From the IMG/VR virus record IMGVR_UViG_2724679140_000014: a stretch of 13,036 bases of DNA, one strand, 5' to 3'. The translations under genes and the position numbers were made by a program. This DNA is from a virus. Its lineage: Duplodnaviria; Heunggongvirae; Uroviricota; Caudoviricetes. A model generated the notes under the pieces. The model made no database searches and had not been told where the DNA came from. It was given only the letters and a program-made list of their open reading frames with translations. Below are positions 10,791 to 11,941 of the stretch, piece by piece. Positions within the stretch are counted from its first letter, which is position 1; each line of letters begins with the position of its first letter.

Positions 10791-11177
10791 AAAGTCTCCG
10801 CCCCTGTCCGGCAGTGTAAGAGGTGTTTTTTAGGGAGACCCTTTTCAGCCCATAAAACTGGAAAAATCACGGTTTTTTTAGTCTGCTGGTGGAGTGAGTT
10901 TTTTTAACGATGCCAGTAATGGCGCGGGTTGGGCGTGGTTTTGTCTGATAGGTTTTATCTATCAACTCTGCGCACACCTTCCCAAAAAAAAGTTTTCGAT
11001 CCTGCGGCGATGCGAAGAAGGGTTGGCGGGCGGTCCCTGACATCCAGGGCCACAGGGATTTGATCTGCCCCTCCCGTTGATGATAACCGTTATCAATTAC
11101 TCCACCAACCGGCAGGACGGTAACAATACATCGGGCTACCCGTTCCGGTACTGGTTAATCCTGGCTTTCGCAATCAG

Positions 11178-11214
11178 CGTGACGTGATGGTGACATGCCG
11201 TGACACATCGTGAC
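11178..11214. repeat. Array of four (C/G)GTGAC motifs at about 10-bp (helical) spacing
   Basis: CGTGAC at 11178-11183, GGTGAC at 11189-11194, CGTGAC at 11199-11204 and 11209-11214. Confidence 0.4.
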
Positions 11215-11251
11215 GCTACCAACAGCACAGGGGAGAACGGCAGAACGCGGG

Positions 11252-11276
11252 TAAAAAAATCCCCGTGATTACGGGG
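11252..11276 (-). terminator. Rho-independent terminator on the minus strand
   Basis: Stem CCCCGT/ACGGGG (11261-11266 / 11271-11276), 4-nt loop, followed on the minus strand by T7 (A-run 11253-11259 on +). Confidence 0.55.
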
Positions 11277-11941
11277 CAGAAGGATAATAACCATCAGGAA
11301 ATGTTAGCTACCACAAAGCAAATAACCATGAACAACGATTAAGAGTACGGAGAATAACCGCTCGTTCATGCCGGATAATGCCATCAGGCCAGGAAGATGG
11401 CAACGCACGGACCATAACGCATCGCCACCAGTCCTGTGGGTTATCACGCAGCAATACCGGGTATCCTGGTATCATGATGCGCATGATTCAGTGATGAACA
11501 AAAAACAGGCTTTTTCGACACCGGGAATTTTTTTAACCTTCATTATCAATAAATTGCGCTGGTGGTGATGACTGATAAAAATGCGAAAATTTGGCGATTC
11601 CCGCGCGTCCATCGCCCCTCGGTGTTTAAATTTTAGGAAGGACCCGCAACGATCGGAGCGTTTCATCAACGTCATGCGTTATGCCGGATTCACTGCGTGC
11701 GTAATACGTATGCACATCCCAGGCAGTAACAGCCAGAATTGCGCCTCTGACGTTGTTTTGTGGTTATCCCCCTGCCATGAGCCATCGTAATAGTTTTATG
11801 CGCTCTGCGTTGCGCTGGTGGACTTTTCCACCATTGGTGGGAAACATGGCACCACATCCACCAGCTTAATCACGCTTCACCTTCCCGGCATCAGTCGCCA
11901 CAATTACGGCATTGTTTCCCATCACCCTGGAGGCCATGACA

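Follow-up and report, generated by a model that had tools for sequence, protein, structure and literature searches.

A non-coding control region with cos-like sites of different packaging families in an Escherichia coli phage satellite

Virulence and defence genes are disseminated at high frequency by phage-inducible chromosomal islands (PICIs), which rely on a helper phage for induction, replication and transfer; how far they spread is limited by which helpers can package them. The closest described relative of the locus presented here is EcCICFT073 of Escherichia coli, for which two lambda-like cos sites have been shown to function (PMC6092414, PMC6739421); the second of these papers asks why certain PICIs are equipped with two cos sites that differ (PMC6739421). 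Cos satellites of the SaPIbov5 type, which occur in Staphylococcus aureus and are packaged by HNH-dependent cos phages, are also named in the literature (PMC6092414, PMC5052747), while for phage HK97 the small terminase binds an element of G/C plus A-tract that lies 15-29 bp downstream of the cut (PMC11331095). Here we analyse a stretch of 13,036 nucleotides filed as viral DNA of the Caudoviricetes (IMG/VR record IMGVR_UViG_2724679140_000014), called the window in what follows, and in particular its positions 10800 to 11900, singled out in an earlier note as about 1.1 kb without convincing open reading frames (ORFs). Judged from its sequence, this stretch is a non-coding control region of a PICI. 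It creates a puzzle: How does a phage satellite come to hold 1.1 kb without any gene? The explanation that we consider probable is that the stretch has no genes because it is built of cis-acting sites, and that it serves as a hub for exploiting helper phages, combining cos sites of several packaging families with an array of helper-type iterons and a candidate small RNA.

The island and its region without genes

The window is classified as an E. coli satellite of PICI type integrated at tRNA-Pro, and not as a lambdoid phage, because its integrase gene lies at tRNA-Pro, its primase and origin are laid out as in PICIs, and virion genes are absent. Its closest relatives are chromosomal islands adjoining tRNA-Pro, between yejM and yejO; the int gene at window positions 1-1242 is followed by a helix-turn-helix regulator, and the near-identical locus of STEC308 lies at the same tRNA-Pro between these two genes. 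A Pfam search placed a DUF927 primase gene at 4431-6563, just 3' of which, at 6590-6890, about ten TGGGACRAC repeats in both orientations surround A/T-rich DNA and appear to form the origin of the island itself. This corresponds to the PICI layout of a replication gene followed by an origin with two iteron sets flanking an A/T-rich stretch (PMC6092414). The annotated content consists of the integrase, the AlpA-like helix-turn-helix regulator, ash, an icd-like gene, the DUF927 primase, SSB, ProQ/FinO, PerC, DUF1441, a small terminase and small hypothetical proteins; none of these annotated genes is a virion or lysis gene. The features that define PICIs, namely a terminal integrase with site-specific insertion and an AlpA-type regulator, a primase followed by an origin, and a length of about 10-15 kb without virion or lysis genes, are thus found together in an element of about 11-13 kb.

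Within 10800-11900 no ORF evolves like a gene, in agreement with the earlier note. The RefSeq annotation of a genome that is 100% identical contains zero coding sequences between window positions 10568 and 11942, and ten ORFs of 44-69 amino acids have no credible match in Pfam, PHROG or NCBIfam, the two weak matches being phrog_10767 at E 0.049 and NF008362 at 16.9 bits versus a cut-off of 68. In 8-9 island haplotypes the substitutions in these ten ORFs are spread evenly over the codon positions and most variants are not intact, whereas the flanking control genes have a strong third-position bias (24 of 32 changes for the gene at 11942-12226 and 39 of 59 for terS). Pseudogenes were sought by tblastn with 16 phage and PICI proteins as queries, including HNH, HK97-type TerS, Nu1, DUF1441, O-like, RppA and neighbouring phage proteins, and none was found except a short terS stub. 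The matches amounted to six residues, EKGLPK, later backed at the DNA level as belonging to that stub, and to a weak N-terminal HNH match at E 0.05; a remnant of an HNH gene was dropped as a candidate, since DNA alignment gave no support for the latter match.

The region is carried by about 27 of 5426 complete E. coli genomes at 85-100% identity. The island loci compared bear L-numbers as labels (L001, L014-L019, L032, L108 and L134 among them), L006 being the locus of EcCICFT073, which we located in CFT073 at 1,377,930-1,389,000.

Cos-like sites and small terminase genes

The region is most readily understood along the minus strand, which leads to the island terS at 10568-9966. In this direction it presents three co-oriented packaging sites, at 11665-11490, 11098-10948 and 10790-10569, all pointing toward this Nu1-type terS gene. 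The middle one, at 10948-11098, is by homology a complete cos of HK97/phiP27 type, at which cutting and packaging would occur. It shares 75-86% identity with the sequence that separates the HNH and terS genes in phi467, 689R5, 640R1, 813R8, 606R7, mEp235 and phiP27, which is the cos location in those HK97-like phages. The cut-site homologue GGGACCGCCCGCCAACCC at 11038-11021 is where the annotated 10-nt cos-site of phiP27 (CGCCCGCCCC) aligns, as does the right end of the HK97 genome (...GACCGCCGCCAAA); this homologue lies between an upstream GGGAGGGGCAGATCAAATC element and a downstream CGCATCGCCGCAGGATCGAAAAC-T8 block. The upstream element, in the form GGGAGGGGC.G.TCAAATC, and the downstream block are nearly identical to their counterparts in phages, those of phi467 and 689R5 in the case of the block, and following the logic of the HK97 work (PMC11331095) the downstream block would be the homologue of the TerS site. 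Few blocks of the region vary as little among island haplotypes as these two. A perfect 13-bp palindrome, GATAAC-C-GTTATC, stands at 11082-11094 on the upstream edge of the homology, the phage versions of it being imperfect (GATAACAGTTCCC).

The distribution of this segment needs to be considered with respect to prophages, since it is present in 1061 of the 5426 complete genomes. Its 27 island copies share at least 90.7% identity and have no annotation over them; a gap separates them from the prophage copies, which overlap an HNH gene and reach 80.4% identity at most. A second copy occurs in 16 of the 27 genomes with the island. The island copies form a distinct lineage, which would therefore be old and separately maintained, rather than the product of a recent accident. 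Downstream of the site, at 10829-10947 on the minus strand, lie about 120 nt that have no start codon and are frameshifted. Because the homology to phi467 extends beyond the start codon of the phage terS, and because 23 nt of the window (10851 to 10829) match codons ~33-40 of the 689R5 terS with a score that 0 of 300 shuffles reach, we take them as the dead 5' stub of an HK97-type terS. It is for this stub only that the earlier suggestion of decayed genes holds true.

The site at 10569-10790 belongs to the type of lambda and phage 21. It has an exact cosQ match, GGGTCCTTTCCGG, at 10786-10774, a 12-nt cosN equivalent, GGGCGGCAGACG, at 10757-10746, and a cosB at ~10740-10580 with elements in an R3-I1-R2-R1-like order; over 10790-10569 its identity to the cos segment of phage 21, in which R and IHF sites are annotated, amounts to 75-78%, and it was aligned with lambda as well. 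The earlier note had placed the region upstream of a canonical cos, which is correct for the minus strand, where cosQ and the cosN-like sequence lie downstream; the cos is present, while the word canonical is generous, as its cosN differs from that of lambda at 5 of 16 positions. Directly downstream follows the Nu1-type small terminase gene (9966-10568, minus strand), the 200-amino acid product of which matches Pfam Phage_Nu1 at 9.6e-68 and lambda TerS 1-98 in the PDB at E 1.8e-38, with 62.5% identity to gp1 of phage 21 and 52.8% to lambda Nu1. Substitutions in this gene among island haplotypes are coding-like. Its similarity to RppC is only at E 0.05, and packaging of the Rpp type (RppA/B/C), in which a protein of 144-153 amino acids forms a heterodimer with the TerS of the helper, does not fit this island, for the 200-amino acid protein is a full Nu1-type TerS and the DUF1441 protein described below, also tried as an Rpp, was rejected for its lack of similarity to RppA.

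The third site, at 11490-11665, is a second lambda-like cos, of the type found in the Stx-type phage 1720a-02, with the cos of which it aligns from 11665 to 11490 up to the start of that phage's small terminase; it matches also CP-1639 and ASU11. The order of lambda-type elements is preserved, with cosQ-like GCGGGTCCTTCC at 11647-11636, then the cosN equivalent GGGCGATGGACG at 11617-11606, within a distance of about 17-30 bp downstream, and then cosB-like sequence to ~11490. The site is a direct repeat (D2) of the phage-21-like cos, 860 bp apart, and at the same time the inverted partner of a plus-strand cos at 8535-8770, which is preceded by a terminator and followed by its cognate DUF1441 gene at 8770-9279. 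The product of this gene matches Pfam DUF1441 at 6.9e-36 and is 52.6% identical to the protein encoded upstream of TerL in 1720a-02, that is, in small-terminase position. No remnant of terS was found by tblastn directly downstream of the minus-strand copy, in 11490-11280. A further lambda-like cos on the plus strand, at 9764-9960, faces the 3' end of the island terS; it has cosQ GGGTCCTTCCCGG, a degenerate cosN, R3/I1-like elements and an R2/R1-like perfect 12-bp inverted repeat (9900-9911/9945-9956), with no terS downstream, and is 74% identical, inverted, to 10680-10787. In total, five cos-like sites of three sequence families lie within 3.2 kb.

The inverted copies of cos (8535-8770 with 11490-11665; 9764-9870 with 10680-10790) seem to act as sites of recombination or gene conversion. 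Inversion isomers of the packaging module occur among strains (L017, L019, L108 and L134), with breakpoints inside the inverted cos copies, at 11575-11623 and 10680-10787, and in L014, L015 and L032 the minus-strand cos of 11490-11665 is replaced by a copy 94.6% identical to inverted 8547-8620. Natural deletion variants, of value as controls, keep all cos sites while L015 is without terS, L016 is without the DUF1441 gene and L001 has a truncated primase. In L017 and L018 (strains C5 and OkiPb01677) a cassette of PAAR, S-type pyocin and immunity genes adjoins the packaging module; a cos-flanked invertible segment could therefore carry cargo.

The GTCAC array and a candidate small RNA

The earlier note had also described four (C/G)GTGAC motifs at helical periodicity, and these are indeed present on the plus strand, CGTGAC, GGTGAC, CGTGAC and CGTGAC starting at 11178, 11189, 11199 and 11209 with spacings of 11, 10 and 10 bp. 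On the minus strand, which gives spacings of 10, 10 and 11, they read as an iteron-type array of four GTCAC(G) units at 11178-11214, GTCACG-ATGT-GTCACG-GCAT-GTCACC-ATCAC-GTCACG. It is the only array of its kind in the window, and even a three-unit array arose in just 2 of 2000 shuffles. An exact search for GTCAC at the 10/10/11 spacing retrieved at least 120 viral contigs. Among the 120 matches listed, 114 lie inside one gene, coding for an O-like protein of 358 amino acids, usually as two clusters 260 bp apart, and six lie outside it, three of these being copies of the present island. The motif in the O-like gene falls in three reading frames, and for this reason it is a repeat of DNA and not of peptide. 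This gene is annotated as 'DNA replication protein O' or 'phage replisome organizer', comes after cII in phage 689R5, and belongs to a replicon that is present in full length in 1646 of the 5426 complete E. coli genomes. The origin of lambda lies inside gene O, and the phage GTCAC repeats would by analogy be origin iterons.

Two other origins of the array were considered and rejected. It is not a fossil of the O gene, for its flanks have no similarity to that gene above shuffles, and it is not the island's own origin, for the iterons of the latter are the TGGGACRAC repeats by the primase. Furthermore, the array is kept in the island of strain C5, which has another replication gene, a RepA helicase, and hence it is not tied to the Rep of the island. 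The pattern of variation agrees with the protein-binding array that the earlier note had envisaged: in five island haplotypes, the eight variable sites are all confined to the 14 positions of the spacers, the 23 positions of the cores being free of variation (hypergeometric P ~8e-5). Most likely, then, the array is bound by the O-like replisome organizer that belongs to a very common lambdoid replicon. A decoy or tether, sequestering the helper initiator on the amplified island, is favoured here over a working origin because there is one cluster only and no A/T-rich unwinding region.

Between the array and the remaining element of the region, at the equivalent of ~11222, L015, L032 and L134 have a 74-bp insertion. 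Beyond it stands the clean minus-strand terminator reported in the earlier note, CCCCGTAATCACGGGG followed by ATTTTTTT at 11276-11252, an intrinsic terminator with a 6-bp GC stem, a 4-nt loop and T7, the stem of which is invariant in 9 of 9 aligned island variants. About 100-150 nt upstream of it on the same strand is a promoter-like site, made of a -35 TTGCCA at 11403-11398, a 17-nt spacer and an extended -10 TGgCATTAT at 11383-11375, the two hexamers of which are conserved among haplotypes while the spacer sequence varies. The whole candidate transcription unit extends over 11252-11403, and the body at 11305-11380 is the only invariant block of the region. The probable product of this unit, in our view, is an RNA of about 118 nt transcribed from the minus strand between 11369 and 11252, for which the predicted fold has a 15-bp hairpin containing G.U pairs at the 5' end, another hairpin and then the terminator; the minus strand folds at -30 kcal/mol (z -2.4) and the plus strand at -21.4 (z -1.4). 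The non-coding RNA that the earlier note had invoked to account for the terminator is therefore plausible but unproven, the conserved promoter-like site and the invariant body being in its favour. No Rfam family was found for the region at gathering or permissive thresholds. Elsewhere in the window, Rfam recognises isrK (80 bits) and, in tandem with it, the C4 antisense RNA (75 bits) at 3002-3187 on the plus strand, near the ash and icd-like genes, an immunity RNA module of P1/P7 type inside a PICI.

The rest of the gene-free DNA, at 11666-11941, has no coding-like ORF, no match outside this island family and no homology to the phage loci compared. It is a spacer and probably, on the plus strand, the promoter region of the conserved gene for a 94-amino acid protein at 11942-12226.

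Alternative explanations and known systems

How might these elements work together? After induction of a helper, the helper's terminase would find its own kind of cos on the concatemer of the replicated island, cut it and package island DNA. A HK97-like helper would bring its own TerS, TerL and HNH, while a helper similar to lambda and phage 21 or to 1720a-02 would bring TerL, working with the TerS-like proteins encoded by the island; one island could thereby ride at least three packaging families. That the region is such a hub, with multi-family cos sites, helper iterons and a candidate small RNA in the control region of a PICI, is in our judgement probable. The fuller and more specific proposal has a clearly lower standing and is advanced as tentative: signals of three unrelated terminase systems (Nu1-type of lambda and phage 21, DUF1441-type, and HK97/HNH-type) would stand side by side with origin iterons of one of the commonest prophage replicons of E. 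coli, these iterons binding the helper initiator as a decoy or to draw the replication and packaging machinery of the helper, and recombination at the inverted copies of cos would turn the packaging module around from one strain to another.

Several observations weigh against the interpretation of a hub. Co-oriented lambda-like cos sites with different cosN could give mismatched ends. At the HK97-type site, no HNH gene was found alongside by tblastn and DNA alignment, the terS is reduced to its stub of ~120 nt, and the T-tract of the putative TerS site is farther from the cut-site homologue than in HK97 (+15 to +29). Moreover, the 10-nt overhang region is the most variable part of this cos among island copies, with conserved flanks: at 11021-11038 the loci L014-L019 have the variants CCCGCCAA, CCTACCAA, CCCGCCTA, CCGCCCAA, CCTGCCAA and CCCACCAA, although the overhang also varies among phages. 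The array lacks a second cluster, lies outside any initiator gene and has no adjacent A/T-rich region; it is degenerate in the degraded island L018 and has lost exactly one unit in L017. Four phages with the O-like gene also match the HK97-type cos of the island, a co-occurrence that we take only as consistent because the replicon is so common. As for the candidate RNA, promoter-like sites were no more frequent in the scan than expected by chance, and no compensatory changes were seen, the body being invariant and the few changes mixed. All arguments from conservation rest on limited divergence, given the small number of genomes and their range of identity; a search for diverged islands in other species, among genome contigs with Nu1-type TerS, returned only distant relatives in Shewanella.

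The most serious alternative, which we nevertheless regard as unlikely, is that the HK97-type cos with its terS stub, the array and the extra lambda-like cos are inert debris left by earlier recombination of the island with prophages, with only the phage-21-like cos and its terS in use. Such debris would account for the dead terS beside the HK97-type cos, for the island variants that have lost terS or the DUF1441 gene and for the degenerate array of L018, and EcCICFT073 offers a precedent, since it needs only cos1 and deletion of its cos2 even raised transfer (PMC6092414, PMC6739421). Inert DNA is harder to reconcile with TerS-side and upstream blocks that are less variable than their flanks, with array cores that stay invariant between variable spacers, with the separate and internally conserved lineage of the island copies, and with a module that persists through several inversions and in company of different replication genes. 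A more restricted proposal counts the array as part of the signal for packaging: at about 140 bp upstream of the HK97-type cut, terminase, HNH or a bending protein of the host would use it as an accessory site, with no link to a replication initiator. A distance of 80 bp separates the array from the homology with the HK97-type cos, the two are linked in 24 of 27 genomes, and the helical phasing of the array is typical of sites for terminases or architectural proteins; we give this proposal little credence, because the phages with homologous cos have an HNH gene at that position and not such an array, both full four-unit arrays of phage 689R5 lie in the O gene, and the TerS site of HK97 is 15-29 bp downstream of the cut, not upstream (PMC11331095).

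The terminator, too, could be explained otherwise, as ending the gene of a small protein, either the 47-amino acid ORF at 11447-11304 or a nested hydrophobic peptide of 21-26 residues (MNERLFSVLLIVVHGYLLCGS), possibly a toxin-like membrane peptide. PGAP does call the 47-amino acid coding sequence in STEC316, and it is annotated as hypothetical in some strains; its C-terminal part is invariant, and a leaderless mRNA is conceivable, as transcription is predicted to start close to the nested ATG. Yet the N-terminal half has 5 synonymous versus 14 non-synonymous changes, only 3 of 8 haplotypes are intact, neither ATG appears from the sequence to be preceded by a ribosome-binding site, two haplotypes have GTG in place of the nested ATG, and there is no family match, all of which makes a protein improbable. 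As to the frame of the earlier note, in which the region would immediately precede cos at the right end of a lambdoid prophage that has decayed, its one attraction is the adjoining lambda-like series of cosQ, cosN and cosB with a Nu1-type terS after it. The gene content already contradicts this reading, for after terS there are no genes for TerL, portal, head, tail or lysis, and the element is a satellite island with integrase, primase, origin and PerC of its own at tRNA-Pro between yejM and yejO; no similarity of the region to the right end of lambda was found either, and we consider the lambdoid reading hardly credible.

Retaining the hub as the preferred explanation, the locus has implications beyond this island family. 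PICIs with multiple cos sites are already known as a kind; what appears new is the tandem arrangement of packaging sites from different terminase families together with an array of helper-origin iterons. In the searchable literature we found neither cos sites of different packaging families side by side in a PICI nor a satellite-borne copy of a helper's origin iterons. To the question of why certain PICIs possess two cos sites that differ (PMC6739421), the locus suggests a testable answer, namely that the sites belong to different packaging families and that each extra site adds a class of helpers. The possible helpers are numerous, for about 20% of complete E. coli genomes have a prophage with HK97-type cos and about 30% have the replicon whose iterons are copied. 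If the array does bind the helper initiator, it would represent a new and purely DNA-based way for a satellite to interfere with its helper or exploit it. For engineering, the locus also supplies short, defined sequences with which plasmids or synthetic PICIs could be made packageable by several types of phage.

Compared with known systems, the proposed use of the HK97-type site follows the logic of SaPIbov5, which reportedly carries only the cos of its helper and relies on the TerS, TerL and HNH endonuclease of the latter; SaPIbov5, however, comes from a different phylum and an unrelated sequence family, and it is not known to combine cos sites of different packaging families. With the cos of HK97, phiP27 and phi467 the site shares 75-86% identity over ~150 bp, the cut site of phiP27, the end motif ACCGCC(C)GCC of HK97, the downstream block of G/C plus T-tract and the orientation toward a terS gene. 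It differs from them in having no upstream HNH, in its terS being a stub and in being embedded between two lambda-type cos sites in a satellite. The array resembles the O-gene iterons of 689R5, Evi, Tritos and similar phages in its GTCAC(G) core, four units and 10/10/11 spacing, which correspond to one phage cluster, but it is a single cluster outside any gene, without a second one 260 bp away and without A/T-rich repeats, and its flanks are unrelated. The closest resemblance remains that with EcCICFT073, which likewise has more than one lambda-like cos (with recognisable cosQ and cosN, and cosB unlike that of lambda) near a gene for packaging specificity, a terminator directly before the plus-strand cosQ, as here before the cos at 8535, and a conserved gene for 93/94 amino acids beyond the minus-strand cos, the two homologues being 71% identical and that of EcCICFT073 starting ~35 bp from cosQ. 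The cos sites of EcCICFT073 (L006 25529-25574 on the plus and 26294-26339 on the minus strand) form an inverted pair that flanks rppA and has a cosN identical to that of lambda. In contrast, the present island has no Rpp homologue; its TerS is of Nu1 type and is accompanied by a TerS-like DUF1441 protein, its cos-like sites number five and have three different cosN or cut sequences, one of them of the non-lambda HK97 type, and it possesses the iteron array, which is absent from EcCICFT073.

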